A stretch of DNA of 32,000 nucleotides from Candidatus Nitrospira inopinata (GCF_001458695.1 NZ_LN885086.1:2430001-2462000), one strand, 5' to 3'; shown: positions 11,769 to 30,281, numbered from the stretch's first letter. A program made the numbers and translations. The notes: a model not told the origin generated them from the letters alone.

Positions 11769-12994
11769 TCGACGTCAAAGAACAGTTGGAACTGATCGGG
11801 CGCGGCGCGGTGGAAATCATCCAGCCGGCGGAGTTGGAGGCCAAGCTGACCCGTTCGATTAAGGAAGGACGGCCTCTCCGGGTCAAGGCAGGCTTTGACC
11901 CCACCGCGCCGGATCTGCACCTGGGCCACACGGTGTTGATTCACAAACTCAAACACTTTCAAGACTTGGGCCATCAGGTCATCTTCTTAATCGGCGATTT
12001 CACCGGCATGATCGGCGATCCAACCGGCGTGTCGGAAACGCGAAAGGCGCTCACCAAGGAGCAGGTTCAGGAAAACGCCAAGACTTATCAACGGCAGATT
12101 TTCAAAATTCTCGATCCGGCAAAGACCCTGATCGAGTTCAACAGCCGCTGGATGGGGACGATGTCGGCCGAAGGGCTCATTCAACTGGCGGCCCACTATC
12201 GAGTGGCGCGCATGATGGAGCGGGATGATTTCCGCAAACGGTTCGAGGAGCAAAAGCCGATCAGCGTCCATGAGTTTCTCTATCCGCTCGTGCAGGGATA
12301 CGACTCCGTCGCCTTGAGAGCGGATGTGGAGTTGGGCGGGACCGACCAAAAGTTCAATCTTCTCGTGGGACGAGAACTCCAGCGGGACTATGGGCAGGAA
12401 TCGCAGGTGGTCATCACGATGCCGCTGCTTGAGGGAACCGACGGTGTCAAAAAAATGAGCAAGAGCGTCGGCAACTATATCGCGCTCGAAGACCAGCCGG
12501 GCGAGATGTTCGGCAAACTCATGTCGATCAGTGACGGACTGATGCTCCGCTACTACGAATTGCTCACCACCGAGGATCTCGATCGTGTGAAGTCCCTTCA
12601 TCCGATGGAGGCCAAGCAGTCATTGGCCGAATTGATCGTCGCTCGCTACCACGGCTTGGACGCAGGACGGGGGGCGAGGGCGGAGTTCCAGCAAAAGTTC
12701 CAAGCCCAAGAGTTCCCCGATCAGCCGGACAAGCATCTCATCCTGACGCCGGCCGACCTGCCGGAGCGGGATGCCGCCGGGACAAGCGGCATCAAGTTGG
12801 TGAAACTCATCGCTGCGACAGGATTGGTGGCCAGCGGCAGCGAGGCCAGGCGGTTGATCGTCCAGGGGGGGGTGGAAGTCGATGGTATGAAAGAGTCCAA
12901 TCCCGAGACGGTGATCGCGTTTCGCGAGGGACAGCAACGTCGCCTCAAGATCGGCAAGCGAAAGTTCGCGCTCGCCGAATGCAAAATGAACTAG
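11765..12994 (+). CDS. tyrS: tyrosine--tRNA ligase (type 2)
   Basis: 409 aa. HIGH-type motif DLHLGH, KMSKS loop, C-terminal S4-like domain [18 protein letters not shown]. Confidence 0.93.
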
Positions 12995-14140: not shown

Positions 14141-14326
14141 CCCTTGTTGTCACACGAACAGAGCAGCCGTAGGGGAATCGGTCGTTCTAAACTCCGAATG
14201 ACGCGCATGATTTCGCACCGTGAACGCACGGATGGCTCTGTGACCTTGGTTGTCACGGGCCCGTGCGACACTACAGCCCGATCGGAACCGTTTCGAGCCG
14301 TCTGGAAGGGAAGAAAGGAGGCGGTC

Positions 14327-14695
14327 ATGCGAACGAACACAGGATGGCGCGTCGCCTTGCTGGTCTGTTGCCTATGGCATTCAACGAGCCAAGCCGAGTG
14401 GGGGTTCGATCCGCGCTATCAGCGGGACTACAACATCTTTGCCCCCACTCAGCGGTATGCATCCGACAACCCGCTGAATCTAGTGAACCGGTATGATCCG
14501 GACAACCCCTTTAACCCGGTCAACCGCTATGACCCTGGCAATCCGCTCAACCCCATTCACCGCTACAATCCAAATAATCCCTTTAATCCTGTGAATCGGT
14601 ACCATCCGGACAATCCCTTGAATCCGGCGAACCAGTATAACGTCGATGTGCCCTTTGCACCGTTGAATGGAGGAAAGCCGTCGAGGACATGGTGA
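14327..14695 (+). CDS. small secreted protein with tandem NRYxPxNPxNPx repeats, function unknown
   Basis: AAGGAG site 6 nt before ATG 14327. Signal-peptide-like N-terminus (WRVALLVCCLWHSTSQA/EW). Six degenerate 12-residue repeats follow. The 61 codons upstream in the track ORF (from 14144) have no support. Confidence 0.65.
   Translation: MRTNTGWRVALLVCCLWHSTSQAEWGFDPRYQRDYNIFAPTQRYASDNPLNLVNRYDPDNPFNPVNRYDPGNPLNPIHRYNPNNPFNPVNRYHPDNPLNPANQYNVDVPFAPLNGGKPSRTW
14450..14665 (+). repeat. six degenerate 36-bp (12-codon) tandem repeats inside the NP-repeat gene
   Basis: Units QRYASDNPLNLV / NRYDPDNPFNPV / NRYDPGNPLNPI / HRYNPNNPFNPV / NRYHPDNPLNPA / NQYNVDVPFAPL, read directly from the translation. 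Confidence 0.8.
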
Positions 14696-15289: not shown

Positions 15290-17947
15290 GTGAGCACAGC
15301 AAAGCCTCAGTTTGATCATTTATTTCATCATCTGACAGGAAACAAGCCGTTCCCATGGCAGAAAAAGCTCTACGACGAATTGGTTGGGAATCAATTCCGC
15401 ACCCAGTGCGACGTTCCGACGGGTCTCGGAAAGACATCGGTTATTGCTGTATGGCTTTTAGCCTTGGCCCATCATGCGCAGAACGGTTCACTGAAACAGT
15501 TTCCACGCCGTCTCGTTTATGTGGTGAATCGGAGAACTGTGGTAGATCAGGCAACCCGTGAAGCAGAACGTTTACGAAACGCACTGGCAGATACGCCGGA
15601 ACTTCGGGCTGTCGTTCTCAGCTTGAGAGCACTTGCCGTCGATTCAGAAGGTCCGCCTCTTGCGATCAGCACGTTGCGTGGTCAGTTTGCAGACAATGCT
15701 GAATGGCGCAATGATCCCGCAAGGCCTGCCGTGATCGTTGGCACGGTGGATATGGTGGGGAGCCGCCTGCTCTTCAACGGGTATGGATGCGGCTTTAAAA
15801 GCAAGCCGCTTCATGCAGGTTTTCTAGGGCAGGATGCTCTCGTCATCCATGATGAGGCCCACCTTGAACCGGCCTTCCAGGAGTTGATCTTGGCGGTCCG
15901 CAACGAGCAAGAACGTTGCAGGGAGTTCGGTGTCTTTCATGTGATGGAACTGACGGCAACGTCAAGAACAATGCGGTCAACTCGATGCCCCATCTTTACC
16001 GATGAGGATCTGCGCGACCCGATAGTTAGCAAACGATATAAAGCTAGCAAGAGTCTGAGTTTCCACACTGTTGACGACAAGACGAAGCTAGCCGGCAAAG
16101 TTGCGGAACTTGCGCTCACTCACAAGGAAAGCGGACAGGCCATCTTGGTCTTTCTGCGGGAGCTTGACCAGGTCAAGACAGTGTGTCGAGAACTGGACGA
16201 GGCCAAGCAACAGGTCCAGGTGCTCACGGGTACTCTTCGAGGAAAGGAGCGAGATGATCTGGCGAAGAAGGATCCGATCTTTGCCCGTTTCATGCCACGG
16301 CCCGAAGTCGATCCAGCTCAGGGCACAGTTTATCTGGTGTGCACCTCAGCCGGAGAGGTCGGGGTGGATATCTCTGCTGACCACATGGTCTGTGATCTCA
16401 CGCCATTCGATAGTATGGCTCAGCGCCTTGGTCGTGTGAATCGCTTTGGAGATGGCGCTGCCTCTATTGATGTTGTGCGCGTGGCATCCAAAAAAGATAA
16501 CGGCTCACAGGAGAAGAATGAGGAACGGTCGCCGCTCGAATTGGCCATAGAACGAACCCGATCACTACTGGCCAAGCTTCCGAGCCAAACCGACGGCTCG
16601 TTTGACGCCAGTCCGATGGCCCTGCGTGGCTTGCCGGCAGCCGAGTGGCTGGCTGCGTGTGCACCATCGCCGGTGATCTGTCCTGCGACCGACATTCTGT
16701 TCGACGCGTGGGCTCTGACATCGATGAATGAAAAGCTGCCCGGCAGACCACCAGTCGCCGATTGGCTGCACGGCGTGGCGGAGTGGGAGCCGCCTGAAAC
16801 CTATGTGGCCTGGCGCGAGGAGGTCGAAGTGATCCATGGAGATTTATTGACTCGATACAAGCCAGAGGATCTGCTCGAAGACTATCCGCTCAAGCCACAT
16901 GAACTGCTACGTGACCGTTCCGATCGAGTTCGCAAAGAGCTAGAGAAAATCGCTGCACGCGAACTGGATTGCTCGTGCTGGCTTCTTGATGCCAATGGTG
17001 AAATCCGCGTGCTGAGGACTGGTGAACTTATCCAGAAAGACAAGCAGAAGAAGCCGGTAATTGATCTAAAAGACTGCACCGTGATTCTGCCTCCCAAGGC
17101 CGGAGGGTTGAAGAAGGGTTTGTTAGAGGGGGATGAACCGTTTGATGAGGGTCAAGGAATTAGCTACGACGTGTCAGATCAGTGGTTCGACGACGATGGA
17201 CGGCCAAGGCGCGGTCGGGTCTGGGATGATACCAGGCCTCCATCAGGGATGCGGCTTGTGCGAACAATTGACACTTGGGTGGGCAGGCTGGAAGACATGG
17301 AAGAGGAGTACGAAGAAAGTGTGCAACGGTATTGGCGGTGGTACGTTCGACCACGATCGGCAGATGATGATGGTTCGCGAACCGCACGGCTGCCGCAAGA
17401 CTTGCAGGAGCATCTCAAAGCGGTTGAGGACATGGCGGGCAAGCTCACCGCCAAGCTTGGCTTACAGGAGTCTGAAGCTTCGGCAGTTAAAATGGCGGCT
17501 CGGTGGCATGATCTGGGGAAGAACCGCGCCATCTGGCAGCGATCGATCGGTAACCATGACTATCCACAACGCGTGCTGGCGAAATCTGGTGGCACCGCAA
17601 CACCCGTGGACCTCTCGCCCTATCGACATGAATTCGGCTCGTTGCTCGAAATACAGCGGTGTGATGAGTTTCAACAAGTTGACGGGCACATCCAAGATCT
17701 AGTTCTACACCTGGTGGCGGCGCACCACGGACGGGCTCGCCCCCACTTCCCTGTTAATGAAGCATTTGATCCTGACTATCCGGACGGCGAAGCTGTCCAA
17801 CTTGCTCGTGAAGTGCCGCGGCGATTTGCCCGCCTGCAGCGAAAGTACGGCCGCTGGGGACTCGCGTATCTCGAATCGTTGGTGCGGGCTGCCGACGCGT
17901 TAGCCTCGCAGGCGCTCGGTTCAAACGGGGCAATGGGACCGAATTAA
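15290..17947 (+). CDS. cas3: type I-G CRISPR-associated helicase/nuclease Cas3 (helicase N-terminal, HD domain C-terminal)
   Basis: 885 aa, GTG start. Motif I VPTGLGKT, DEAH box VIHDEAHL, motif VI QRLGRVNRFG. C-terminal HD motifs ARWHDLGK and LVAAHHGRARP, the order typical of the GSU0051-type Cas3. Confidence 0.9.
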   Translation: MSTAKPQFDHLFHHLTGNKPFPWQKKLYDELVGNQFRTQCDVPTGLGKTSVIAVWLLALAHHAQNGSLKQFPRRLVYVVNRRTVVDQATREAERLRNALADTPELRAVVLSLRALAVDSEGPPLAISTLRGQFADNAEWRNDPARPAVIVGTVDMVGSRLLFNGYGCGFKSKPLHAGFLGQDALVIHDEAHLEPAFQELILAVRNEQERCREFGVFHVMELTATSRTMRSTRCPIFTDEDLRDPIVSKRYKASKSLSFHTVDDKTKLAGKVAELALTHKESGQAILVFLRELDQVKTVCRELDEAKQQVQVLTGTLRGKERDDLAKKDPIFARFMPRPEVDPAQGTVYLVCTSAGEVGVDISADHMVCDLTPFDSMAQRLGRVNRFGDGAASIDVVRVASKKDNGSQEKNEERSPLELAIERTRSLLAKLPSQTDGSFDASPMALRGLPAAEWLAACAPSPVICPATDILFDAWALTSMNEKLPGRPPVADWLHGVAEWEPPETYVAWREEVEVIHGDLLTRYKPEDLLEDYPLKPHELLRDRSDRVRKELEKIAARELDCSCWLLDANGEIRVLRTGELIQKDKQKKPVIDLKDCTVILPPKAGGLKKGLLEGDEPFDEGQGISYDVSDQWFDDDGRPRRGRVWDDTRPPSGMRLVRTIDTWVGRLEDMEEEYEESVQRYWRWYVRPRSADDDGSRTARLPQDLQEHLKAVEDMAGKLTAKLGLQESEASAVKMAARWHDLGKNRAIWQRSIGNHDYPQRVLAKSGGTATPVDLSPYRHEFGSLLEIQRCDEFQQVDGHIQDLVLHLVAAHHGRARPHFPVNEAFDPDYPDGEAVQLAREVPRRFARLQRKYGRWGLAYLESLVRAADALASQALGSNGAMGPN

Positions 17948-17961
17948 AGCCGAGGGAGGAG

Positions 17962-18789
17962 TTGGCATTGGTGGACACAAATCCTAAGCCAGAGATCAGC
18001 GTCCATGTGGACCCAGCGAATCCCGGTCAATTCTTTGCATGCTGCGGGTTGCTGGAACTGGCCGATCGCCTGTGGGACGGGGCAGAGGGATGGTTTCAGG
18101 ACGACGTCTTCAAGGTCTTGACCAAAGGAACATTAGAGGAGCTGCTTAAAATGCTTGTAAAAGACTTGCCGGCGGAGGTGACCAGCCTTGAAAAAGGCTT
18201 GACCGTCAAGCCTCTTATTGCACCGCTGCGGTTGTCTTTGGGAGTAGGAGATCGAGATCGCCTTACGCTTGATGCCTGGATGGTGATCCGGACTGAAAAG
18301 CAAAAGTTGGTTGCCGCTGCGAATCCCCCGTGGAACTTCTGGTCAGGGCAGCAAACACCGCTGCGGATTTGGACTACACTGCGTGACGCGCTACGTCAGC
18401 AACTCGAAGAGTTAAAGCCATCTCAATACGACGATCTATTCAGTCTGTTGGTGCCCTTACCAGGGCGGTTTGGCTTTGATCCTGGTGCTGCTTGGAATGC
18501 CTTAGATGTCGGGTTCTCACCGAATGAGCAAGATATTCCCGTGTCCTCATCACCTGCGACAGAGTCGCTTGCCGCTATAGGGATTCAGCGCTTTCGGCCA
18601 TTGCTCTCGGATGACCGCATGACCTTTGAGTACTCGACATGGGGCCAGCCACTTCCTCCGTCGGTTGCTTCTGGAGCAGCATCGGGTATCGTCGAAGTTG
18701 GGCCGAGAGTGCGATTTCGTGGGCGTGTAATCAGTCGTGGTAGCTATGCGGCCCTTGGTTACTCCATCCAGATTGAAAGGAGCGAATGA
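17962..18789 (+). CDS. putative type I-G large-subunit-like protein (Cas8g2/Cas8u2, GSU0052-like)
   Basis: 275 aa. Called mainly by position between cas3 and cas7g, as in the Geobacter-type I-U/I-G operon. GAGGGAGGA site precedes the TTG start. 4-nt overlap with the next gene. Family assignment not verified. Confidence 0.55.
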   Translation: MALVDTNPKPEISVHVDPANPGQFFACCGLLELADRLWDGAEGWFQDDVFKVLTKGTLEELLKMLVKDLPAEVTSLEKGLTVKPLIAPLRLSLGVGDRDRLTLDAWMVIRTEKQKLVAAANPPWNFWSGQQTPLRIWTTLRDALRQQLEELKPSQYDDLFSLLVPLPGRFGFDPGAAWNALDVGFSPNEQDIPVSSSPATESLAAIGIQRFRPLLSDDRMTFEYSTWGQPLPPSVASGAASGIVEVGPRVRFRGRVISRGSYAALGYSIQIERSE

Positions 18790-19952
18790 TGAACGAACTA
18801 TTGGAAAAGTATGACTCGTGGCTTAAAGATGATAGCAATGTCGCAGCGGTGACGGTGCGGCAGTGGCTTGAACCGGTTGAAGGTAAAGACGCCATTATTT
18901 TCCCGCCTACCTACCCAATTGAAGGTAATGCTGGCTACTCGATCGACCGCATCGATGGGTTTACTGTTTGTCAAATCGATAGCGTGGGATCACAAGCAAA
19001 CCGTATCGAGCCCATTTTTTTGCGGGAGCAATATTGCGACCTTGTGCCGAAGGTGATCATTAGAGCGACGGTGGATGGCAGGGAGAGGTCTATTCATCTT
19101 CTTGAGGCTGGCCACCGTGCAGCGGATGCCATTGTCCGCTTTTCAACGCTCGGAGCGCGGATTCACGAGGCATTTCGGGCTATCCATGAGAACGGTGATG
19201 CAACTCTCTTGGCACGCATTGCGCCAACCTCCCTCGTCTTCGGTGTTTGGGATTCCCGAGCAACGCAAGTGAAACTTCCGAGAGTGCTTCGCTCAGTCAT
19301 CCGCGCATTTGACGTGTACGAGTTGCACCGTTCCGCTCAATATTCAACTCTTGCTGGAGAGCTCTTGGAGGGCCCAGATGTGGAAGTGACAACAAAGGGT
19401 GTGAAAGCGGAGCTAGGTCTAGCCCACGTACCCTCTGTTAAAACCCATGGTGGTATCAGGGTTAAAGGCGAAATTCGAAGGGATGCCGCCTTAAACGTTG
19501 TTGCAATTCGCTCTTTGGCATCAGGGCCTGACAACGAGATAGGCACTCTCTCACTGCGTCGTTACGTTCTTGGGTTGGCTCTGGTTGGACTCACATTCGA
19601 ACAAGACTTCTCACTTCGAGAAGGCTGCCAGCTCATACCAGACAAAGGACGTCCGCCTGAATGGAAAATTATTCTCCACGATGGCACACGCAAAGACATT
19701 GTGCTAACGCACAGGGAATCGATTGAGTACGCAAGGAAAGCCGCGGAACAGTTTGGTATCGGCCAAGATGCCACAGGCGAATTCGAAGCAATGCTTGCCC
19801 GCAAAATCCAGGAACTTCCGGAGAAAGATCGCAAGGCGTTGTTGCGCAAGGGGCCTGTGACAATGGAAGCAATAGAGGAGTTCTTGAAGAAGAGAAAAAC
19901 GAAAGGGAAAACCACGAAGGAACCTGACGCTTCCGAAGGAGGCGAGGAGTGA
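18786..19952 (+). CDS. csb1: type I-G Cas7 backbone protein (Csb1/GSU0053 family)
   Basis: 388 aa. Segments IIFPPTYP and IDSVGSQANRIEP match my recollection of the GSU0053 family. Translationally coupled on both sides (ATGA and GTGA overlaps). Confidence 0.75.
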   Translation: MMNELLEKYDSWLKDDSNVAAVTVRQWLEPVEGKDAIIFPPTYPIEGNAGYSIDRIDGFTVCQIDSVGSQANRIEPIFLREQYCDLVPKVIIRATVDGRERSIHLLEAGHRAADAIVRFSTLGARIHEAFRAIHENGDATLLARIAPTSLVFGVWDSRATQVKLPRVLRSVIRAFDVYELHRSAQYSTLAGELLEGPDVEVTTKGVKAELGLAHVPSVKTHGGIRVKGEIRRDAALNVVAIRSLASGPDNEIGTLSLRRYVLGLALVGLTFEQDFSLREGCQLIPDKGRPPEWKIILHDGTRKDIVLTHRESIEYARKAAEQFGIGQDATGEFEAMLARKIQELPEKDRKALLRKGPVTMEAIEEFLKKRKTKGKTTKEPDASEGGEE

Positions 19953-21517
19953 CAGTCCATCTTTGCATCTCAGTAACGTTTATTGATCCATTGTTTCATG
20001 GAAGAGGTGACCACGAAGAACCTGAGTGGCCGCCTTCGCCGTTACGGCTCTTTCAAGCCATGCTATCAGGAGCACGAATTGCGTCTGGCTGTCACGTTCC
20101 AGGCGATGACTTCAAAGCGTTCTTGTGGTTGGAAAAGCAGAATGCGCCGCAAATAGTTGCACCATTAGCGCGGGAAATGGCTGCTCGTCGCTACTATGTG
20201 CCTAATAACGATAGTGACAAGAAATTCGAGAGGCAGGATCGACTTGCCGAGAAAATATTCCAACCTCATCGAATGTGCGGCAACGATTCAACCACAGTTC
20301 ATTACGTTTGGGCTCTCCGTAGCTCTCTGTTGGGTGAGGAACCCACGCGCATCGAGATACTCAAAGGTGTTGCCCGTAAACTTGTTGCATTGGGTTGGGG
20401 CATCGACATGGCTGTCGGACATGCTGCAGTGCTGTCCGATGAAGAGGTCAAAGCCTTACCCGGTGAGCGGTGGGTACCAGGGAGAGAAGGCAGTGCAGGG
20501 GGGTTGCGTGTGCCGGTGCCCGGCGCGCTCAAGGCCCTTATTGCGCGGCATGAACGTTTTCTCAAACGGGTGCGAGAAGACGGCACATTTGATCCCACGC
20601 CGCCCTTGCAAGAGTCTGTGTATAAGCGAGTCGAATATCGCCGGGTCACTGATCCACCGCTGAGGTCTTTCGCGGCGTTTTCACTTCTGAAGCTCGATGC
20701 CAGCCGGTTCCAGCCATTTGATCCAGTGGGTAGAGGGCTAACCTTGGCAGGGATGTTGCGGCACACGGTGGCATGTGCTGCTCGTCGCGCGGGATGGCCT
20801 GAGTCGACAATCAACGCCTTCGTCCTTGGACACGGGGGATCGAAGAACGGGCATCACGTTCCTGTCGGTCCTCACCGGTTTGCCTATTTGCCGCTCCCGA
20901 GTCTCGAGGGACGCGGCGAGGGGAAATCGCGTGTTGTTGGAAATATCCGCCGAATCCTGCTCACGTCCTTTACAGAAGACTGTGAGGTTAAGGTCGGCTG
21001 GGCGCGCCGGGCTTTGTCGGGCTGTGATCTTATCGATGAGGAGCACAGGCGGTCCGTAGCGATGCTATCGCTTCTTCCCAATAATGAAAAGATCGTGCGT
21101 TGCTATGTCGAGCCTGCCGATACCTGGGCAACTGTCACACCCGTTGTCTTGCCTGGCTACGATGACCCGGCGCACTATCGAAGACGATTGAAGAAAGTGA
21201 CGACTGCCGACGAGCAAAGGCGGTTGCTTGAGCGGCTGGACGAGCGCATTGACCGCTTGCTGCGCAAGGCTATTGTCCAGGCGGGTTTTTCTCACGAGCT
21301 TGCCACCCATGCAGAACTGCAATGGCGGAAATCAGGATTCTGGCCGGGAACTGATCTCGCTGACCGTTATGGTGTGCCCGACCACTTGAAACGGTTTTCC
21401 CGGTGGCATGTGCAGTTGCGCTGGCGGGATGCACAGAGGCGGCTCATCGCGGTGTCAGGCCCTCTGTGCTTGGGGGGCGGCCGCCATTACGGCTTGGGGC
21501 TTTTTGCGGCGGTGTAG
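19949..21517 (+). CDS. csb2: type I-G Csb2 (Cas5-Cas6 fusion, GSU0054 family)
   Basis: 522 aa. N-terminal FHGRGDHEEPEWPPSPLRLFQAM signature and C-terminal glycine-rich RAMP loop LCLGGGRHYGLGLF. Confidence 0.8.
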   Translation: MTVHLCISVTFIDPLFHGRGDHEEPEWPPSPLRLFQAMLSGARIASGCHVPGDDFKAFLWLEKQNAPQIVAPLAREMAARRYYVPNNDSDKKFERQDRLAEKIFQPHRMCGNDSTTVHYVWALRSSLLGEEPTRIEILKGVARKLVALGWGIDMAVGHAAVLSDEEVKALPGERWVPGREGSAGGLRVPVPGALKALIARHERFLKRVREDGTFDPTPPLQESVYKRVEYRRVTDPPLRSFAAFSLLKLDASRFQPFDPVGRGLTLAGMLRHTVACAARRAGWPESTINAFVLGHGGSKNGHHVPVGPHRFAYLPLPSLEGRGEGKSRVVGNIRRILLTSFTEDCEVKVGWARRALSGCDLIDEEHRRSVAMLSLLPNNEKIVRCYVEPADTWATVTPVVLPGYDDPAHYRRRLKKVTTADEQRRLLERLDERIDRLLRKAIVQAGFSHELATHAELQWRKSGFWPGTDLADRYGVPDHLKRFSRWHVQLRWRDAQRRLIAVSGPLCLGGGRHYGLGLFAAV

Positions 21518-21699: not shown

Positions 21700-22230
21700 G
21701 TGAGAGACTGGAAGGCCAAACGTCCCCGGTGCATTGTGATTGCCGGGCCAAACGGCGCGGGGAAGACAACGTTCGCGCGAGAGTTTCTCACTCGAGAGGC
21801 GGGCGTGATTCACTTTGTCAATGTTGATTTGATCGCGAGCGGACTCTCGCCCCTTCGCCCAGAACTGGCGGCGCGGCGGGCAGGACGGCTTGTATTGGCG
21901 GAACTCAACCGATTGGCAAGGGCCCGCAAGGATTTTGCCTTTGAGAGCACGTTGAGTGGGCGGACCTACCTCGGAATGCTCAGACGGTGGAAAACCGCCG
22001 GTTATCGAATCGAGATGGTGTTCCTGCTGTTGCCGTCGGTCGAACTGGCGCTCCGACGTATTGCAGTGCGAGTTCGACAAGGCGGGCACAACGTGCCACG
22101 GGGTGACGTCATCCGGCGTTTTGGCCGAAGTTGGAACAACTTTCGAACGCTCTATCGTCCCTTGGCAGATGTGTGGGTTGTGTATGACACTTCAGGAGAG
22201 ATCCCACAATTATTGGAGGAAGGTCCATGA
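21700..22230 (+). CDS. zeta-toxin-like P-loop ATPase/kinase (COG4185-like)
   Basis: 176 aa, GTG start. Walker A IVIAGPNGAGKTTFAREF, then FESTLSG and the QGGHNVPRGDVIRRFGRS segment typical of this small AAA/zeta-like family. Confidence 0.75.
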   Translation: MRDWKAKRPRCIVIAGPNGAGKTTFAREFLTREAGVIHFVNVDLIASGLSPLRPELAARRAGRLVLAELNRLARARKDFAFESTLSGRTYLGMLRRWKTAGYRIEMVFLLLPSVELALRRIAVRVRQGGHNVPRGDVIRRFGRSWNNFRTLYRPLADVWVVYDTSGEIPQLLEEGP

Positions 22231-22385
22231 GGCAGAAAAATGGTATGCCGGAGACCAAAGCATTCGTTCGGATGGTTCGTCGAGCGTTGCGACGCGCCTT
22301 CAAGATGGCTAGGAAAGCGGCGCAAGCGCACCACACACCCATTTATCTCTGGCGTAATGGCAAGGTTGTGGCGGAGAAACCATGA
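22227..22385 (+). CDS. 52-aa basic ORF translationally coupled to the ATPase (possible cognate antitoxin or partner)
   Basis: Not in the ORF track (under 60 aa). ATG 22227 overlaps the ATPase stop as ATGA. Translation: MRQKNGMPETKAFVRMVRRALRRAFKMARKAAQAHHTPIYLWRNGKVVAEKP. It ends 17 nt before the right 21-nt repeat copy. Confidence 0.45.
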   Translation: MRQKNGMPETKAFVRMVRRALRRAFKMARKAAQAHHTPIYLWRNGKVVAEKP

Positions 22386-22401: not shown

Positions 22402-22422
22402 CAGTTCATGCCGGCGGGGGAG
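22402..22422. repeat. right copy of the 21-nt direct repeat bracketing the ATPase cassette
   Basis: CAGTTCATGCCGGCGGGGGAG. One transition relative to 21558-21578. Confidence 0.8.
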
Positions 22423-22508
22423 TCGGAGCGTTGTTGATGGCTCGTGCGAGGTGAAGCGCGTGGCGGCAAAGCGGTCAACGGCCGATCGCTGTGGGAAAGG
22501 AGGGCCCT

Positions 22509-22940
22509 ATGTGGTGGATGGTCATGATGATAGTGATGGTGTTCACCGGTCCGGGCTCTACCCGGGCGGAGTATCTCGGCGACTTGAGCGCCAATCCGTT
22601 CAACCCGAATTCCCTGGCGAATCCTTTCGGCGTCGGCTCGCCGTTTCTTTACAAGAGCCCAACGAACCCGTTTGGGCCCTATGGCAGTCCGTTCAGCAAT
22701 CGGTCGGCGACCAATCCCTTTGCGACGCAGGCCCCGCGACTCTATGACCGGGCAGGAAACTACCGAGGCCGGTTAAGCGCGAACCCGTATGATCCCGACT
22801 CCATCAGCAACCCCTTCGGGCGCTATGGCAATCCCTTCTCGCCCGACAGCGTGAACAATCCGTTCGGGGCGGGCAGTCCGTTCCGGTTCGACAGCCCCAA
22901 CAACCCCTACGGCTCGGGGTGGATCATCGTCGGGGAATGA
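22509..22940 (+). CDS. small secreted NPF/NPY-repeat protein, function unknown
   Basis: GGAAAGGAGGG site before ATG 22509 (the track ORF opens at GTG 22491). Hydrophobic signal-like N-terminus MWWMVMMIVMVFTGPGSTRA/EY. Nine NPF or NPY motifs follow (ANPFNP, ANPFGV, TNPFGP, TNPFAT, ANPYDP, SNPFGR, GNPFSP, NNPFGA, NNPYGS). Confidence 0.65.
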   Translation: MWWMVMMIVMVFTGPGSTRAEYLGDLSANPFNPNSLANPFGVGSPFLYKSPTNPFGPYGSPFSNRSATNPFATQAPRLYDRAGNYRGRLSANPYDPDSISNPFGRYGNPFSPDSVNNPFGAGSPFRFDSPNNPYGSGWIIVGE

Positions 22941-22977
22941 GATGCCCGTGGAGAAGGCACAAGAGACGGGCGATGCG

Positions 22978-23577
22978 CTACGGGAGCAAATCGGCGACGG
23001 CGATGGATGCGGTAGGGGCAGCGAGCAGCGAAATGGTGTCGGAGGGGCCGAGCTTGACGTGTGAACGGTACGACGCCGGTTGGCCGGAGGGTGTGACGGG
23101 ATCGCGGAAAACTTCCAGACACCGTTCCAAAAGGTTGATGATCCAGTATTCCGGGATGCCGGCTCGGGCGTAGAGCGGGGCTTTCCGGTCACGGTCGAGG
23201 GAAAGCGTTGTATCGGCGACCTCGACGACGAGCATCGCCGTGCGAGGATGCTCTTTTAAATATTCTTCTGGGTCGCCCGGCACCACCGCCAGGTCCGGTT
23301 CCGGCTCCGAGTCAGGATCAATCAAGAGGGGCATTTGTATGCGGACCCAGAACCCCTGTCCGAAGATGCGCTCGAGGACGCGCTGTGTTTTGCCGATGGT
23401 GACGGCATGCGGACTATTCCGCGGGGTCATCGCGATGATCTCTCCCTCAATCAATTGGATGTGCTCATTCGGATCAAGAATGCCCGATTCAGCCAAACGG
23501 TCATATTCCTGGCAGGTCCAGCGTTTGGTGTGGACGGTGGGAGCAGACATCGTCGGCCTCATATCATCAATTGTCAA
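22978..23577 (-). CDS. Uma2 family (DUF820) putative PD-(D/E)xK endonuclease
   Basis: Family-typical segments: WTCQEYDRLAESGIL, IQLIEGEII, EPEPDLAVV, LVVEVADTTLSLDRDRKAPLYARAGIPEYWIINL. The likely true start is ATG 23550, which has GAGG 6 nt upstream. The ORF opens at TTG 23577. Confidence 0.8.
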   Translation of the reverse strand: MTIDDMRPTMSAPTVHTKRWTCQEYDRLAESGILDPNEHIQLIEGEIIAMTPRNSPHAVTIGKTQRVLERIFGQGFWVRIQMPLLIDPDSEPEPDLAVVPGDPEEYLKEHPRTAMLVVEVADTTLSLDRDRKAPLYARAGIPEYWIINLLERCLEVFRDPVTPSGQPASYRSHVKLGPSDTISLLAAPTASIAVADLLP

Positions 23578-23615
23578 AAGTCTAGCAAACAGCCTGGCGG
23601 CTCACAAGCACAGGG

Positions 23616-23838
23616 TCCCGTTCTTTGACAACTGAATAGTTTCAGGCCCTCTGCCGATAAGAGAGGGTATGGAACGCGAAGCATTTGCCGATGGAGCAGG
23701 GAACGAGGCGATGCCCTTGCTCCCTGCTCGGATGGTCAACGAATTTGCCTATTGCCCGCGGCCCGCCTATTTCGAATGGGTAGATGGGGTCTTCGCCGAC
23801 AGTGCCGACACGGTGGAGGGCCGGTTTCCATACCGTTC
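23616..23838. repeat. copy 1 of a ~223-bp direct duplication (cas4-cas1 upstream region plus first ~56 codons)
   Basis: Offset to copy 2 is exactly 757 bp. There are 4 mismatches in the first 205 bp, and similarity decays over the last ~18 bp. Confidence 0.9.
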
Positions 23839-23881
23839 CCGCGGTATTTGGAGAAGAAAGGGAATGCCCAAAATTCTTTAG
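23669..23881 (+). pseudogene. cas4: truncated cas4-cas1 5' fragment
   Basis: MEREAFADGAGNEAMPLLPARMVNEFAYCPRPAYFEWVDGVFADSADTVEGRF is near-identical to the N-terminus of the intact gene at 24426. The reading frame then runs into unrelated sequence and stops. Confidence 0.85.
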
Positions 23882-24090
23882 AGCAGGTCTTTGAACCGTT
23901 CGAGAGAAATGTCGGCAGCGTCAAGGATGTGTTTCAGTGTCCCGGGCTTGATGACATGATGCCGGGGAATAATGACGATCTGTTTCTCGTTAGTCATCGA
24001 AATATGTTTGCCCTCGCGCAGGACAGAGAAGCCGGCTCGTTTCAGGGCTCTCACGACACGTTCATGAGAGACCTGCGGGAGCTTGCTCAT
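23878..24090 (-). CDS. hicA: HicA family mRNA-interferase toxin
   Basis: 70 aa. SHERVVRALKRAGFSVLREGKHISM...IIPRHHVIKPGTLKHIL is typical of HicA/YcfA. 4-nt overlap with hicB. Confidence 0.85.
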   Translation of the reverse strand: MSKLPQVSHERVVRALKRAGFSVLREGKHISMTNEKQIVIIPRHHVIKPGTLKHILDAADISLERFKDLL

Positions 24091-24290
24091 GCGCCGACTA
24101 CGACGGTTCTCAATTTCTTAAGTCGCTTCAAATCCTCGATGCTCTCGAGGTAGATCTTGATGGCATCCTTGATGTTTTCCAGGGCTTCTTCCTCGGTCTC
24201 GCCCTGCGAGACACAGCCCCTGAGCGTCGGGCAATACACCACGTACCCGCCGGCTTCCCGATCCTGCTCAACGATGACGGGATATTCCAT
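24087..24290 (-). CDS. hicB: HicB family antitoxin (UPF0150 fold)
   Basis: 67 aa. MEYPVIVEQDREAGGYVVYCPTLRGCVSQGETEEEALENIKDAIKIYLE is typical of the HicB N-terminal domain. Confidence 0.85.
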   Translation of the reverse strand: MEYPVIVEQDREAGGYVVYCPTLRGCVSQGETEEEALENIKDAIKIYLESIEDLKRLKKLRTVVVGA

Positions 24291-24320
24291 AGGTACCTCG
24301 TTAGTTGTGAGGACGAAACC

Positions 24321-24329
24321 ATTATAGCA
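24321..24329 (-). promoter_or_regulatory. candidate extended -10 promoter of hicBA
   Basis: The minus strand reads TGCTATAAT (TGn plus consensus TATAAT) about 30 nt upstream of the hicB ATG. GAGGT site precedes the start. Confidence 0.45.
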
Positions 24330-24372
24330 AAATGCGAAGGTTGTATGCGGCGGTGTGTGGGGTGAAGAAATA

Positions 24373-24595
24373 TCCCGTTCTTTGACAACTGAATAGTTTC
24401 AGGCCCTCTGCCGATAAGAGAGGGTATGGAACGCGAAGCATTTGCCGATGGAGCAGGGAGCGAGGCGATGCCCTTGCTCCCTGCTCGGATGGTCAACGAA
24501 TTTGCCTACTGCCCGCGGCTCGCCTATTTCGAATGGGTAGATGGGGTCTTTGCCGACAGTGCCGACACGGTGGAGGGTCGCTTCCATCACCGGCA
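24373..24595. repeat. copy 2 of the ~223-bp direct duplication (functional cas4-cas1 5' end)
   Basis: See copy 1. Both copies include the palindrome ACTGAATAGTTTCAG and the AGAGAGGG ribosome-binding site. Confidence 0.9.
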
Positions 24596-26150
24596 GGTGG
24601 ATCGCGAGCCGGTCAGGCCGACCCGACGAGCGGCAGATGGTGACGAGCAAGAGCCTGTATTGCACCAGCGGTCGGTCTGGCTGTCATCCGAACGGCTGGG
24701 CGTCACGGCCAAGATCGATCTGGTGGAAGGAGAGGTGCCGTCACCAGATGGCCAACCACAAGTTGTCACGCCCGTGGATTACAAACGTGGCAAACGTCCC
24801 CACACGGCCAAGGGTGCGTGGGAGCCGGAGCAAGTGCAGCTTTGCTTGCAAGGGTTGCTGCTCCGCGAGCAGGGCTATCGGTGCGACCGCGGAATCCTCT
24901 ATTTCGTCGGCTCCCGGGAACGAGTGCCCATCGAATTCGATGAGACCTTGATTGGGCGGACATTGGAGTTGGTGGAGGGTATGCGCGCCATGACCAGGCA
25001 GGCGGTTGCGCCACCGCCGTTGGTCGACAGCCCCAAATGTCCGCGCTGTTCGCTGGTGGGGCTGTGCCTGCCTGATGAAATCGGCTGGTTGCGTCAGGCT
25101 GGAGAAGGTGAGGCGCCGGCAGTTCGTCAATTGTTGCCGTCACGGGATGATGCCCTGCCGCTGCACGTCCAAACCCCCGGTGCCAGAATTGGCAAAGAGG
25201 GTGACTGTTTAGTGATCAAAGATCATGACGAGATCCTCGGCGAAGCTCGGTTGGTGGAAACCTCCCAGGTGGTGCTCTATGGTGCAGTTCAAGTGAGCAC
25301 GCAAGTGGTTCAGGAACTATGCAAGCGCGAGATTCCACTCATCTATTGTTCGAGCGGGGGCTGGTTCTATGGACTGACGACTGGTCTCCCGCACAAACAT
25401 GTCGAACTTCGACGACGCCAATATACAGCGGCGGCCGACCCGGTACAGTGCCTGCGACTGGCCAAACGGTTTGTCCAAGCCAAGATCGCCAATTGCCGCA
25501 CATTGATCCGTCGCAATCATCCCGATGTGCCGGATCTGCTGTTGCAGGAGCTCAAGGTGGATCAAGGCCAGGCCGGCGAAGCAGGGTCCCTGGAGTCGCT
25601 GCTCGGCGTCGAAGGCACAGCGGCCCGTCGGTACTTCGGTGCGTTTGGGGCTCTGGTGCGGGATGAAGCGATGCGGGCTCGGTTTGATGCCGAAGGACGC
25701 AATCGCCGTCCACCACGGGATCCAATCAATGCGCTCCTGTCGTTTGCCTATGCGATATTGGCGAGGGAATGGACGGTGGTGGTGCACAGTGTGGGGCTCG
25801 ATCCGTATCTGGGCTTTTATCACCAGCCGCGCTACGGGCGTCCGGCGTTGGCGCTCGACATGATGGAAGAGTTTCGGCCGTTGATTGCCGATTCGGTGGT
25901 GCTGACGGCCGTCAATAATGGCGAAGTACAGAGTGCCGATTTCATCCAGCGACTGGGGAGTGTCAGTCTCACACCGGAAGGGCGGCGGAAGTTTATCGCG
26001 ACCTACGAGCGTCGTATGAGTCAGGAGATCACGCATCCGGTTTTCGGCTATCAAGTCAGCTATCGTCGGGTGTTGGAGGTGCAGGCAAGATTGTTGGGCC
26101 GGTATCTGCTGGGGGAGATTCCAGAACTGCCGCCGATCATCACCCGGTAA
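24426..26150 (+). CDS. cas4/cas1: Cas4-Cas1 fusion (adaptation nuclease/integrase)
   Basis: 574 aa. Cas4 half: N-terminal YCPR cysteine, DLVEGE...VDYKRGK RecB-type motif, C-terminal CPRCSLVGLC cluster cysteines. Cas1 half: GVEGTAARRYF, NALLSFAYAIL, GLDPYLGFYHQPRYGRPALALDMMEEFRP. Confidence 0.93.
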   Translation: MEREAFADGAGSEAMPLLPARMVNEFAYCPRLAYFEWVDGVFADSADTVEGRFHHRQVDREPVRPTRRAADGDEQEPVLHQRSVWLSSERLGVTAKIDLVEGEVPSPDGQPQVVTPVDYKRGKRPHTAKGAWEPEQVQLCLQGLLLREQGYRCDRGILYFVGSRERVPIEFDETLIGRTLELVEGMRAMTRQAVAPPPLVDSPKCPRCSLVGLCLPDEIGWLRQAGEGEAPAVRQLLPSRDDALPLHVQTPGARIGKEGDCLVIKDHDEILGEARLVETSQVVLYGAVQVSTQVVQELCKREIPLIYCSSGGWFYGLTTGLPHKHVELRRRQYTAAADPVQCLRLAKRFVQAKIANCRTLIRRNHPDVPDLLLQELKVDQGQAGEAGSLESLLGVEGTAARRYFGAFGALVRDEAMRARFDAEGRNRRPPRDPINALLSFAYAILAREWTVVVHSVGLDPYLGFYHQPRYGRPALALDMMEEFRPLIADSVVLTAVNNGEVQSADFIQRLGSVSLTPEGRRKFIATYERRMSQEITHPVFGYQVSYRRVLEVQARLLGRYLLGEIPELPPIITR

Positions 26151-26218
26151 ACGGCGCATGGGCTGACGAGTGGATTATATGGGTAAGAGGGACTCACCTT
26201 GGCGGCGAGAGGGTACTC

Positions 26219-26509
26219 ATGCGGCGCTGCTATTTAGTGGCGTACGACATCGCCGATCCCAAGCGACTGCGTCGGGTGTATAAGACGATGAAAGGATACG
26301 GTGCGCATGTGCAATTGTCCGTCTTCCAGTGCGATCTGCCGGAGATGGACCTCATTCGGATGAAGGCAGCGCTGACGGAGATCATTCACCACAAAGAAGA
26401 TCAGGTGCTGATCATCGACTTAGGGCCGACTGACAGTCACCCCATCAAGCGATTTGAAGCCTTGGGCATGGCGATCGAGGTGGAGGAGCGACAGCCTCGC
26501 GTGATATAG
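26219..26509 (+). CDS. cas2: CRISPR-associated endoribonuclease Cas2
   Basis: 96 aa. YLVAYDIADPKRLRRVYKTMKGYGAHVQLSVFQCDL is typical of Cas2. Confidence 0.92.
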   Translation: MRRCYLVAYDIADPKRLRRVYKTMKGYGAHVQLSVFQCDLPEMDLIRMKAALTEIIHHKEDQVLIIDLGPTDSHPIKRFEALGMAIEVEERQPRVI

Positions 26510-26752
26510 ACGGTCTCGAGAGAAGATGCTCGTGCCGTGAGCAGCGCGAGCGGTGTGGTGATGAGCAAGCGATAAGCAGGCGCTCGCGTCACCGTATCGA
26601 GGGCAAGAGAAAGCAACGATTCATAATGGGCAAAAGAGAGATGTTGAAGGAGGTGAGTGCAGAGATATCTATGACAGGAGCATTGAAGGTGTTGGTATGT
26701 GCTCGCAACGTGCGAGTAGGAGAGCAAGAAAACAGGCACATAGCCAAGTGCC
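26510..26752 (+). promoter_or_regulatory. CRISPR leader
   Basis: 243 bp of non-coding, locally AT-richer sequence between the cas2 stop and the first repeat. Repeat degeneracy lies at the far end of the array, which supports this as the leader side. Confidence 0.6.
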
Positions 26753-29700
26753 ATTTCCGCGGCTGAAACGCCGCGGCCCCATTGAAGCTTCATCAACATG
26801 ACGTATGCGGAGCCCACAGAAGATTATTTCCGCGGCTGAAACGCCGCGGCCCCATTGAAGCGCACCGACTGTGGCGTCCGGCGTGGAGACGCTCACCAAC
26901 GATTTCCGCGGCTGAAACGCCGCGGCCCCATTGAAGCACGGCATTCCCAATGAGGCGCCACCGCTCTCGTTCGATTTCCGCGGCTGAAACGCCGCGGCCC
27001 CATTGAAGCGAGTTAAAGCAGTACGGATTTCAGTGGATTCCGTATATTTCCGCGGCTGAAACGCTGCGGCCCCATTGAAGCTGGACAGCTGGCATCATCC
27101 GAACTGCACGTGCTTCTATTTCCGCGGCTGAAACGCCGCGGCCCCATTGAAGCGATCCCTCGATCGATGCTCACGTCGGCGATGGCGAGAATTTCCGCGG
27201 CTGAAACGCCGCGGCCCCATTGAAGCGAATCGGAGGCCGGTGAATGTCACACGGGTGCCTTGATTTCCGCGGCTGAAACGCCGCGGCCCCATTGAAGCTC
27301 AGGAGTCTAGAGGTTGTAAGCCGCCAATACCTGATTTCCGCGGCTGAAACGCCGCGGCCCCATTGAAGCTTTTGCGTGGCGCGGGTGAAGATGCCCGCGC
27401 AATACGATTTCCGCGGCTGAAACGCCGCGGCCCCATTGAAGCGACACGTAGAAGTGCCGGTAACGACAGCAACCCCAAGATTTCCGCGGCTGAAACGCCG
27501 CGGCCCCATTGAAGCGCTAGCCATGTCTCCCGTTCTACGGGTTGCATCGCGATTTCCGCGGCTGAAACGCCGCGGCCCCATTGAAGCAGCGGTTGGCGTT
27601 TCGGTTCTTTTGCCGTGTACGCCCATTTCCGCGGCTGAAACGCCGCGGCCCCATTGAAGCACGAGCTTCAACTGATTTTTGAGCGCACTCTGAACCGATT
27701 TCCGCGGCTGAAACGCCGCGGCCCCATTGAAGCGGGTTCTCAAACAACAACGTATCCACGCCTTCGAGTGATTTCCGCGGCTGAAACGCCGCGGCCCCAT
27801 TGAAGCCCAGTGTCTTGGCGGTCGTATCGACGCTCCGATCCGCATTTCCGCGGCTGAAACGCCGCGGCCCCATTGAAGCGAAAAATGAAAACCGGAACGA
27901 TAAACGAGACATACGTTATTTCCGCGGCTGAAACGCCGCGGCCCCATTGAAGCGGGGATACAACCCCCGAAGATTTGGAAGCCGCCCTCGATTTCCGCGG
28001 CTGAAACGCCGCGGCCCCATTGAAGCCACGAACACGTCGGCCACGGTACATGTCCGGTGGGGCGATTTCCGCGGCTGAAACGCCGCGGCCCCATTGAAGC
28101 AAGACCGTAGGAATCGCGACGGGGACACGGTATGGCCATTTCCGCGGCTGAAACGCCGCGGCCCCATTGAAGCCCCAACACCCTCTGACACCCTCCGACA
28201 CACCAGCCGATTTCCGCGGCTGAAACGCCGCGGCCCCATTGAAGCGACCAAGCTGAAGAAATCCCTGGCGACCGTTGGCAGATTTCCGCGGCTGAAACGC
28301 CGCGGCCCCATTGAAGCCACGTTGAGTCTCCTTATAGCGCCCAGGCGGTTGACATTTCCGCGGCTGAAACGCCGCGGCCCCATTGAAGCCGACCCCGCCC
28401 CACGCATCACGGCCCACCCATCCGCATTTCCGCGGCTGAAACGCCGCGGCCCCATTGAAGCCCCCCAGACCCCCCTCCGCTTCCCCCTCCGGGCAGATTT
28501 CCGCGGCTGAAACGCCGCGGCCCCATTGAAGCAACATGAGTTGTCCGGCGGGGAATTCTCCGCTCGCGAGATTTCCGCGGCTGAAACGCCGCGGCCCCAT
28601 TGAAGCTACGCCAATTGTGTGCGTTTTTCGTCGAACGGGAGAAATTTCCGCGGCTGAAACGCCGCGGCCCCATTGAAGCCGGAACATCGGCTCACTCTCT
28701 GGTATCGTGACACATAATTTCCGCGGCTGAAACGCCGCGGCCCCATTGAAGCATCAGGAAAAGGGCGTATCTGACCTGTTTTTCTGTTATTTCCGCGGCT
28801 GAAACGCCGCGGCCCCATTGAAGCCTCATATTTGAATTGTGTGCGAATGAGGGGCATATGGCTATTTCCGCGGCTGAAACGCCGCGGCCCCATTGAAGCA
28901 GGCGACACAACCCCCGAAGATCTAGAAGCTGCGTTATTTCCGCGGCTGAAACGCCGCGGCCCCATTGAAGCGATGTGGACTGGCTTGTGGAGCTCGGTGT
29001 GTGTCGATTTCCGCGGCTGAAACGCCGCGGCCCCATTGAAGCCCCGGATCGGCGGGCGCGCCCGGTGCGGTGCCTTCATTTCCGCGGCTGAAACGCCGCG
29101 GCCCCATTGAAGCCACAATCTCCCGTCTTTTTTGCTATGACGCGGGTGTAATTTCCGCGGCTGAAACGCCGCGGCCCCATTGAAGCATCGTCCCCCAAGA
29201 CTTGGTCTTCGCGGCGGCGGCAGATTTCCGCGGCTGAAACGCCGCGGCCCCATTGAAGCATCGTCCCCCAAGACTTGGTCTTCGCGGCGGCGGCAGATTT
29301 CCGCGGCTGAAACGCCGCGGCCCCATTGAAGCCGAGAACGTGAAGAACACTAGGGGGAACTACATATGCGATTTCCGCGGCTGAAACGCCGCGGCCCCAT
29401 TGAAGCGCGGTCAAGTTAATCGTGGTGCCGTTGGCGCAGTTCATTTCCGCGGCTGAAACGCCGCGGCCCCATTGAAGCCGCCGCCTCATGCCGTCCCTCC
29501 GTCCCGCCCCGGTCCCCATTTCCGCGGCTGAAACGCCGCGGCCCCATTGAAGCATCCAGCAGTGAGTCCGTGACGAACATTCAGGTGCTGATTTCCGCGG
29601 CTGAAACGCCGCGGCCCCATTGAAGCTCGGAATCGCCGAGCACGGAGAACGCGATTCACATCATTTCCGCGGCTGAAACGCCGCGGCCCCATTGAAGCGA

Positions 29701-30281
29701 GTCATAGAAGAGGAACTGAAAAATAAGCAACAACCCATTTCCGCGGCTGAAACGCCGCGGCCCCATTGAAGCTGATCCGCGACCTGGCCGGCGTAGGCCC
29801 GTCTCCAGATTTCCGCGGCTGAAACGCCGCGGCCCCATTGAAGCGTGTCCGGACCCGCCCAAGCCACCCCCCCCTCCCCCCATTTCCGCGGCTGAAACGC
29901 CGCGGCCCCATTGAAGCTCTGCCCCCCAAGGGGGCATGGAGAGGAACCCTTAATTTCCGCGGCTGAAACGCCGCGGCCCCATTGAAGCACGTCCGATGGC
30001 ACTTTGCCATGCCGTTAAGGGGCTATTTCCGCGGCTGAAACGCCGCGGCCCCATTGAAGCTCATGGTGCGAGAGTGTCGCGAGGCTTCCGTCTAGAAATT
30101 TCCGTGGCTGAAACGCCGCGGCCCCATTGAAGCTCACAACACGCAGCGACCTCCTCGCTCGAACAGGACGCATTTCCGCGGCTGAAACGCCGCGGCCCCA
30201 TTGAAGCTGGACTCCAACGCAGGCGCGTCGGAATGGGCGCGCTGTATTTCCGCGGCTGAAACGCTGCGGCCCCATTGAAGC
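26753..30281 (+). CRISPR. CRISPR array, 49 repeats and 48 spacers
   Basis: 36-nt repeat ATTTCCGCGGCTGAAACGCCGCGGCCCCATTGAAGC, counted by hand. Internal 7-bp hairpin CCGCGGC/GCCGCGG with a TGAAAC loop. The ATTGAAGC 3' end resembles I-C/I-G repeats. Spacers are 35-40 nt. Variant repeats are at 27046, 30098 and 30246. Confidence 0.98.

Follow-up and report, generated by a model that had tools for sequence, protein, structure and literature searches.

We analysed a 32,000-nucleotide stretch of the genome of Candidatus Nitrospira inopinata (NZ_LN885086.1:2430001-2462000, hereafter the window), which contains a complete type I-G CRISPR-Cas system, with matches to all NCBIfam type I-G models above their curated cut-offs and an adjacent array of 49 repeats. 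At the upstream end of the adaptation module, a 223-bp segment that comprises a boxA-like 19-mer (GTTCTTTGACAACTGAATA), a ribosome-binding site and the 5' end of cas4 is present twice in direct orientation (copy A and copy B), with a start-to-start offset of 757 bp, and the two copies bracket 534 bp carrying the toxin-antitoxin genes hicA and hicB, both on the minus strand (Table 1). The right ends of the repeats were mapped to 23835-23838 (copy A) and 24592-24595 (copy B). Exactly four mismatches separate the copies within the first 205 nt; these are followed by the codon pairs GGC/GGT, CGG/CGC and TTT/TTC, after which similarity is gone. Repeat coordinates, offset, the four named mismatches and the decay over three codons that still encode Gly-Arg-Phe had been given in an initial annotation made from the sequence alone, and all were correct by alignment, as was the homology of the two segments in direct orientation. 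The intervening DNA, described there as opposite-strand hicB-hicA, was confirmed as such by Pfam matches to both genes, whose reading frames share 4 nt.

Table 1. Features of the type I-G locus and of the duplicated cas4 5' region. Positions are counted from the first nucleotide of the window.
Feature	Position	Strand	Basis or remark
Interference module cas3g, cas8g2, cas7g/csb1, csb2	15290..21517	+	NCBIfam TIGR02621, TIGR04106, TIGR02570, TIGR02165, all above cut-offs
Uma2-family gene (putative restriction endonuclease), 190 aa	22978..23550	-	Pfam PF05685, E=6e-30
Uma2-side intergenic spacer (IG_U)	23551..23615	.	Alignable with L016, L093, L025 and L020/L027 spacers (...AGTCTAGCAAAC...CACAAGC...)
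Repeat copy A (relic): boxA-like motif, ribosome-binding site, first ~56-60 cas4 codons	23616..23838	+	Repeat alignment
boxA-like motif, copy A (GTTCTTTGACAACTGAATA)	23620..23638	+	Motif comparison
70-aa open reading frame: cas4 codons 1-56 and 14 unrelated codons	23669..23881	+	Open reading frame scan
Mismatch	23703		AAC/AGC (copy A/copy B), N/S
Mismatch	23752		TAT/TAC (copy A/copy B), silent Tyr
Mismatch	23763		CCC/CTC (copy A/copy B), P/L
Mismatch	23794		TTC/TTT (copy A/copy B), silent Phe
Illegitimate joint	23829..23850	.	cas4 homology ends 23828-23836; hicA-downstream homology from ~23850; ~14 nt TTCCCGCGGTATTT between
hicA toxin gene (predicted), 70 aa	23878..24090	-	Pfam PF07927 HicA_toxin, E=2e-12, 47.3 bits (cut-off 27)
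hicB antitoxin gene, 67 aa	24087..24290	-	Pfam PF15919 HicB_lk_antitox, E=5e-11, 43.4 bits (cut-off 27)
hicB-side divergent spacer (IG_H)	24291..24372	.	TGCTATAAT at 24321-24329, minus strand; homologous in L015, L020, L022, L027
Repeat copy B: live 5' untranslated region and 5' end of cas4g/cas1g	24373..24595	+	Repeat alignment
boxA-like motif, copy B	24377..24395	+	Motif comparison
cas4g/cas1g fusion gene, 574 aa	24426..26150	+	NCBIfam NF049935, 795 bits (cut-off 560); Pfam Cas_Cas4 and Cas_Cas1
cas2	26219..26509	+	Profile matches
CRISPR array, 49 repeats of ATTTCCGCGGCTGAAACGCCGCGGCCCCATTGAAGC	26753..30281	+	Array detection

The window is 100% identical, duplication included, to contig CZJZ01000009.1 of GCA_001458755.1, and the duplication was also found in JGI 3300044940, 3300030317 and 3300045922. 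Copy A, hicAB and the start of copy B lie together on one 1039-bp Logan contig, and four short-read contigs end 30-53 nt inside copy A, as is typical of assemblers at a true repeat. The genome GCA_024331025.1 (L007) is ~92% identical over window positions 22402-26509; it contains both copies, and its two junctions agree with those of the window to the base. The duplication therefore predates the split from this lineage. An assembly artefact, which the initial annotation had named as one of two findings that would undo its reading, might be suspected in a metagenome-derived draft with several short-read contigs that break at the repeat. However, the structure recurs in at least five independent assemblies, is spanned by one single contig, has fixed differences between its copies, and is present in a diverged relative that has substitutions and a 16-nt indel of its own. 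Expansion or misjoining of a repeat is thereby ruled out, its residual probability being negligible. The nearest species-level relatives are Nitrospira with 69-77% amino acid identity in Cas4-Cas1.

Copy A bears the marks of a pseudogene. In L007 it has a 16-nt tandem duplication right after codon 2, which causes a frameshift, and in the window the two differences private to copy A (N and P) are both non-synonymous (2/2). On these grounds we regard copy A as a relic in decay. The 70-aa open reading frame that begins in it has no Pfam match, is not kept as an open reading frame in L007 and is probably non-functional.

We compared the upstream contexts of cas4-cas1 in 15 related Nitrospira I-G loci (L013-L027) and in 65 non-Nitrospira I-G loci. 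In seven of the 15 (L015, L017, L018, L019, L020, L022 and L027), hicB, with or without hicA, occupies the position that it has relative to copy B: it is divergent, lies ~137 bp upstream of cas4-cas1, and has an alignable spacer with a conserved -10 element. The succession hicB(+hicA), ~80-nt spacer, conserved motif and cas4-cas1 is the commonest native order in Nitrospira I-G loci. Two of the 15 (L016 and L025) instead have Uma2 directly upstream of cas4-cas1, in the same orientation and with an alignable spacer like that of copy A, and a metagenome contig (L093) has the same Uma2-spacer-motif order as the copy-A side. None of the 65 non-Nitrospira loci has hicA, hicB or Uma2 nearby, and none of the 15 species-level Nitrospira relatives has two copies of the boxA/cas4 5' region. 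Because hicB stands exactly in the copy-B position in 7/15 related loci, hicBA is a long-standing neighbour of the adaptation module and not a new invader, and the window carries two native contexts, Uma2-type and hicBA-type, in tandem. The initial annotation was right in kind about the mechanistic footprint, but its framing of an addiction module newly wedged between the interference and adaptation modules was wrong, as the supposed insertion corresponds to the commonest native arrangement.

A further contact between the two contexts occurs in L019, where the decayed hicA is immediately followed by a Uma2 remnant of 22 aa (E ~1e-6 against five Uma2 proteins); it marks a second, independent Uma2/hicBA junction at a different breakpoint. 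Such remnants, which adjoin hicA without an intervening copy, could be taken to indicate that the repeat arose in situ, i.e. that template switching or replication slippage placed a 223-bp copy of the cas4-cas1 5' end 534 bp upstream in a genome with the order Uma2-hicA-hicB-cas4cas1. A single genome would suffice for this, and the copies are 98% identical. However, the join between the Uma2 spacer and boxA in copy A is homologous to that in L016, L093 and L025 and hence a pre-existing native junction, and the states by which the two L007 copies differ correspond to the Uma2-type and hicB-type states found in other species, which makes a duplication in situ quite improbable.

The edges of the repeats differ in nature. 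All Nitrospira loci become alignable at the 19-mer, and both window copies start 4 nt before it; since the homology of all loci begins there, the left edges are natural module boundaries and not breakpoints. By comparison of the loci, the right end of copy A is the only novel joint in the structure. At this point every cas4 reads CAYCAYCG, copy A reads CCATACCG, and the ~30 nt that follow the hicA stop can be aligned in L015, L022 and the window; L007 has the identical joint. Direct repeats of 223 nt that bracket 534 nt, with left edges where the contexts diverge and an illegitimate right edge, are the direct-repeat arrangement of a Campbell scar, while the reciprocal donor/recipient hybrid pattern expected within the repeats is blurred by later gene conversion.

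A pair of HicA- and HicB-domain proteins encoded in one operon, as found between the repeats, characterizes the HicAB type II toxin-antitoxin systems. HicA, a predicted toxin with the conserved G-K-H motif in its sequence, is identical in L007 and has 89% amino acid identity to the homologue in the same position in L027. HicB has 79-85% amino acid identity to the hicB products of the seven Nitrospira loci, covers only positions 1-54 of the 123-position PF15919 profile and is without the C-terminal DNA-binding domain (ribbon-helix-helix or helix-turn-helix). Short UPF0150-like HicB proteins exist, so membership in the HicAB family remains compatible with this lack. As to the TGnTATAAT promoter that had been assigned to hicBA, the -10-like element TGCTATAAT is present and conserved in related hicB loci, but a strict two-hexamer scan called no promoter there. 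Among the seven related hicB-type loci hicA is intact only in L027 and is fragmentary or absent elsewhere; it is fragmentary or missing in six of eight hicB-type loci (L015, L017, L018, L019, L020 and L022), in which hicB, the -10 element and the spacer are kept, and hicB thus appears to be retained beside the adaptation module as a putative orphan antitoxin. In L019, a second hicB with part of the spacer (11809-12053) is located ~4 kb downstream of cas2 and has 86% nucleotide identity to L019 5667-5929.

The block of hicA, hicB and spacer (23878-24372) is 99.2% identical to that of L007 (4 differences in 495 nt, with 0 differences in the 82 nt of IG_H), as opposed to 88-91% for cas4-cas1 and cas2, 94% for Uma2 and 88-94% for the flanks overall. 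This contrast suggests later gene flow of the hicBA cassette between the two lineages. It also speaks for a self-mobilising or site-specific cassette, integron- or transposon-like, which would have targeted the boxA region and produced the 223-bp repeat as a target duplication, and so does the fact that hicB cassettes always abut the same motif. On the other side, the scan of open reading frames and Pfam domains revealed no integrase or transposase near the cassette, the insert is not bounded by terminal inverted repeats, the cassette was not found on known plasmids or phages beyond one 67-nt HicB match, and copy A ends on its right within a coding sequence and not at a recognisable site. A target duplication of 223 bp is far beyond the range that transposases make. 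We therefore consider such a cassette very improbable. Insertion of a transposon or insertion sequence, for which we looked for a target duplication of 2-15 bp, terminal inverted repeats and a transposase, was rejected on the length of the repeat and the lack of the other two features in the neighbourhood. The small circular element considered in the initial annotation likewise finds no support as an autonomous one: no integrase or transposase is nearby, the cassette was not found on known plasmids or phages, and the left edges of both copies coincide with the general start of homology at the boxA-like motif. The phylogenies of hicB and Cas4-Cas1 were also considered as proof of a recent cassette transfer into L022 and set aside, as their contrast is weak (72-80% versus 66-70%).

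We then compared four copies (window A, window B, L007 A and L007 B), with the other loci as outgroups. Five sites, all in 23642-23686, are concerted, i.e. identical between A and B within each genome and different between the genomes, and the outgroups show that the states are derived in each lineage and common to both copies. Three sites, all in 23794-23827, are orthologous, with A differing from B in both genomes. The separation of the two classes along the repeat has p ~0.02 (Fisher's exact test, our own calculation on 8 informative sites). The window copies are identical over the first 87 nt (23616-23702), where the L007 copies have five differing sites and the 16-nt indel. At 23639, both A copies share a G with the Uma2-type locus L016, and L007 copy B shares a T with every group-I hicB-type locus; the G in copy B of the window suggests that the relic overwrote part of the live 5' untranslated region. 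By these site patterns, the 5' part of the repeat has been homogenised by gene conversion since the duplication. Given that the event predates the split of lineages now ~92% identical and that the 5' part was converted later, the 98% identity of the copies is partly conversion-maintained and not simply a sign of recency.

Conversion between the copies, which is demonstrably active, would also be required if the tandem Uma2 - boxA - cas4' - hicAB - boxA - cas4cas1 were old, ancestral to many Nitrospira I-G loci and maintained by it, with L016-like Uma2-only loci derived by deletion between the repeats and hicBA-only loci by loss of the left part. Recombination of A with B would yield exactly the arrangement of L016, both contexts are present in both Cas4-Cas1 clades, and L019 has Uma2 remnants beside hicA. 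However, two boxA/cas4 5' copies occur in 0/15 species-level relatives, the unconverted 3' part of copy A is far closer to copy B than to the cas4 of other species, and copies A and B share a lineage-specific 3-nt insertion. The last two observations date the event within the window/L007 lineage, and an ancestral tandem is unlikely.

We consider the structure, with a probability of roughly 0.7, to be a recombination scar, left when an allele of the Uma2 type and one of the hicBA type were combined by one homologous exchange and one illegitimate join. By the route that we infer, DNA of a closely related hicBA-type allele would have entered a Uma2-type locus in the common ancestor of the window lineage and GCA_024331025.1, through homologous exchange in or beyond the boxA/cas4 5' region and an illegitimate join of cas4 codon ~57-60 to a point ~30-45 nt downstream of the hicA stop. 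Either the incoming fragment may have circularised and entered by a single crossover (Campbell-like), which inherently duplicates the homology, or homology-facilitated illegitimate recombination may have replaced the rest of the adaptation module and left the resident 5' end in place. The same product is expected from both routes, which are not separable here; as a class of events, the proposal of Campbell-type integration or of allelic replacement with survival of the former 5' end fits the anatomy. The resident Uma2 - boxA - cas4(1-56) stub would have stayed behind. It is decaying as a pseudogene, while gene conversion with the live gene, of whose 5' end it is a direct repeat of ~200 nt, continues over its 5' ~70-100 nt. 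As to direction, Cas2 (86.5%) and Cas4-Cas1 (77.5%) of the window are closest to those of the Uma2-type locus L016, a slight indication that the recipient was of the Uma2 type and retained its own adaptation genes.

Several points weigh against a scar of this kind. It leaves the ~14 nt TTCCCGCGGTATTT at the joint unexplained. The contrast between concerted and orthologous positions comprises only the eight informative sites, and only one or two sites are diagnostic of allele type. An older, more complicated history would also agree with the presence of both contexts in each of the two Cas4-Cas1 clades. No donor allele of the same species was found, and neither was an empty-site allele of the same species, with a single copy and without hicBA, for which a search had been proposed in the initial annotation: the pattern scan of metagenomes gave one match, L093, without cas4-cas1, and the exact-Uma2 look-up yielded nothing but this structure and contigs that break at the repeat.

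The locus is a recombination mosaic at a larger scale too, given the 99.2% identity of the hicBA block to L007 against 88-94% in its flanks. Window positions 18096-20391 (cas8g2, cas7g and the 5' part of csb2) have no blastn-level similarity to L007, while both flanks are 95-99% identical, and the interference module thus appears to have been swapped between the two lineages. The interval between csb2 and the repeat holds four genes, i.e. a zeta-toxin-like P-loop gene with an overlapping 52-codon open reading frame (21700-22385), a 149-aa repeat protein and the Uma2-family gene. The gap between csb2 and cas4cas1 also holds MNT-HEPN (L007, L015, L016, L020 and L027) and RelE-like pairs (L017, L018 and L027) in relatives; it is a variable slot filled by toxin-antitoxin-type genes. 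Two open reading frames, at 22491-22940 and at 14144-14695 (the latter with tandem repeats at 14453-14638), have low-complexity products in which NPF/NPY or DPDNP-type motifs are reiterated; neither has a Pfam match, and one lies inside the cas locus and is kept in L007. Uma2 with its upstream spacer recurs beside relics of a different CRISPR repeat family (L093 2483-2704, L020 10392-10500 and L027 11680-11790): L093 has a lone repeat GTAGCGCCCGTCCTTCGGGGCGGGCGAGGAGTGCAAT 150 nt after boxA, and in L020 and L027 degenerate remnants of the form ...GGCGAGGATTGAAA are located beyond the arrays.

The 19-mer at the start of both copies is conserved without mismatch in 13 of the 15 Nitrospira loci. 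The boxA of E. coli rrn operons is GCTCTTTAACAA, and the core of the 19-mer (GTTCTTTGACAA) matches the boxA class. The CRISPR boxA of Legionella Lens is GTTCTTTAAAA (PMC7862264), and the occurrence of boxA in CRISPR leaders is, as related in PMC7862264, a finding of Stringer et al. 2020. A relaxed core pattern, [GT][TC]TCTTT[GA]A[CA]AA, matched ten times in the 65 non-Nitrospira I-G loci (L046, L056, L057, L062, L063, L068, L072, L078, L079 and L085), in 10/10 cases on the coding strand and 300-700 nt after cas4-cas1, i.e. in the leader zone; the core class of these matches includes the canonical GCTCTTTAACAA. Elsewhere in the 629 kb of non-Nitrospira I-G sequence, on both strands, there were 0 matches. 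In 14/15 Nitrospira loci the core was found only in the 5' untranslated region of cas4-cas1, and the CRISPR leader of the window (26510-26752) has no boxA-like motif of its own. Viral contigs of 31-61% GC contained 72 exact copies of the 19-mer with unrelated flanks, as compared with a chance expectation of <1 by our own estimate; these copies often follow -10-like boxes at a distance of 10-25 nt, one lies within a phage tRNA array, and three precede pemK RNA motifs by ~150 nt. An association with rRNA operons in viral contigs was dismissed, as no rRNA was found beside 20 sampled matches and the tRNA array or pemK RNA motifs were found instead. A role as a sigma-70 promoter, suggested by the TTGACA within the 19-mer, was also dismissed, as no suitably spaced -10 follows it and the strict scan called no promoter. 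Moreover, the motif has to be part of the transcript, since in group-II loci it is directly followed by the Shine-Dalgarno sequence. We classify the 19-mer as a putative boxA-type antitermination element, and infer that cas4-cas1, cas2 and the array of Nitrospira would be read as one antitermination-modified unit, with the signal duplicated in the window lineage.

A hairpin with a 15-bp arm may form at cas4 codons ~9-20 (23694-23729 and 24451-24486), in which variable N-terminal codons pair with those for the conserved PLLPAR. In a set of 18 sequences, pairing holds for 72% of cells, compared with ~50% in slid controls, and a few changes are compensatory (A-U->G-C, G-C->C-G). RNAalifold on the 5' region did not recover this hairpin, and the explicit pair counts give only modest support; it may be an RNA element downstream of boxA. 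A functional role of the whole duplicated unit, in addition to its being a scar, is unlikely. In such a reading, the second, promoter-proximal boxA (copy A) would launch an antitermination-proficient transcript antisense through hicA-hicB into cas4-cas1 and thereby couple the toxin-antitoxin pair to the expression of adaptation genes, cas4-cas1, cas2 and the long array of Nitrospira would form one boxA-modified, termination-resistant unit, and the boxA/cas4 block would be the homology anchor by which upstream cassettes (hicBA, Uma2 and others) are swapped between strains.

The scar reflects known recombination processes on a modular defence locus and does not overturn current understanding; it would be a clear natural example of CRISPR-Cas loci being rebuilt module by module. 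It indicates that the Nitrospira type I-G adaptation module travels with a hicBA pair, and that, when a clean swap fails, a promoter-proximal gene stub can remain that still exchanges sequence with the live gene and that here probably overwrote part of the live 5' untranslated region. The relocation of boxA and the linkage of hicB to cas4-cas1 in Nitrospira are probably leads of more general interest than the scar. With boxA placed before cas4-cas1 instead of in the leader, adaptation genes and array are predicted to be co-transcribed, which offers a testable handle on the full transcription of long arrays (49 repeats here) in nitrifiers.

Campbell-like integration and homology-facilitated illegitimate recombination have both been documented experimentally (Amarir-Bouhram et al. 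2011, PMC3240628; for the two routes see also de Vries & Wackernagel 2002 and Prudhomme et al. 2002, as cited in PMC5361080). The structure described here shares with them one homologous anchor, one illegitimate joint and the capture of non-homologous cargo beside the anchor, and with the Campbell route also the duplication of the anchor as direct repeats around the cargo. It differs in that the event would be natural and ancient and is read from comparative anatomy. The sequential displacement model for effector-immunity modules of the type VI secretion system and for the orphan 3' ends of Rhs and contact-dependent inhibition loci (Kirchberger et al. 2017, PMC5361080) is similar in that the incoming module is anchored by a conserved flank and the resident is displaced and not deleted, its remnant staying beside the new module. 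In that system, however, the anchor is upstream and the orphans are downstream, whereas in the window the variable cassette lies upstream of its anchor (boxA and cas4 5' end), and what is orphaned is the 5' stub of a gene, with no evident selective benefit in being kept. The hicAB pair resembles type II systems in its HicA and HicB domains, overlapping frames and promoter-like -10 element, and, with the MNT-HEPN, RelE-like and zeta-like genes of relatives and window, it conforms to the presence of toxin-antitoxin genes in defence loci, here as a toxin-antitoxin-rich slot inside a cas locus; it departs from them in a HicB of only 67 aa that lacks the DNA-binding domain and in the decay of hicA in 6/8 related loci, and its toxicity is predicted. 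Finally, the Nitrospira core falls into the boxA class known from CRISPR leaders, and in the I-G loci of other phyla the same core class is found only in the leader zone, after cas2, but the putative Nitrospira element is located upstream of cas4-cas1 and not between cas2 and the array, and is present in two copies in the window genome.

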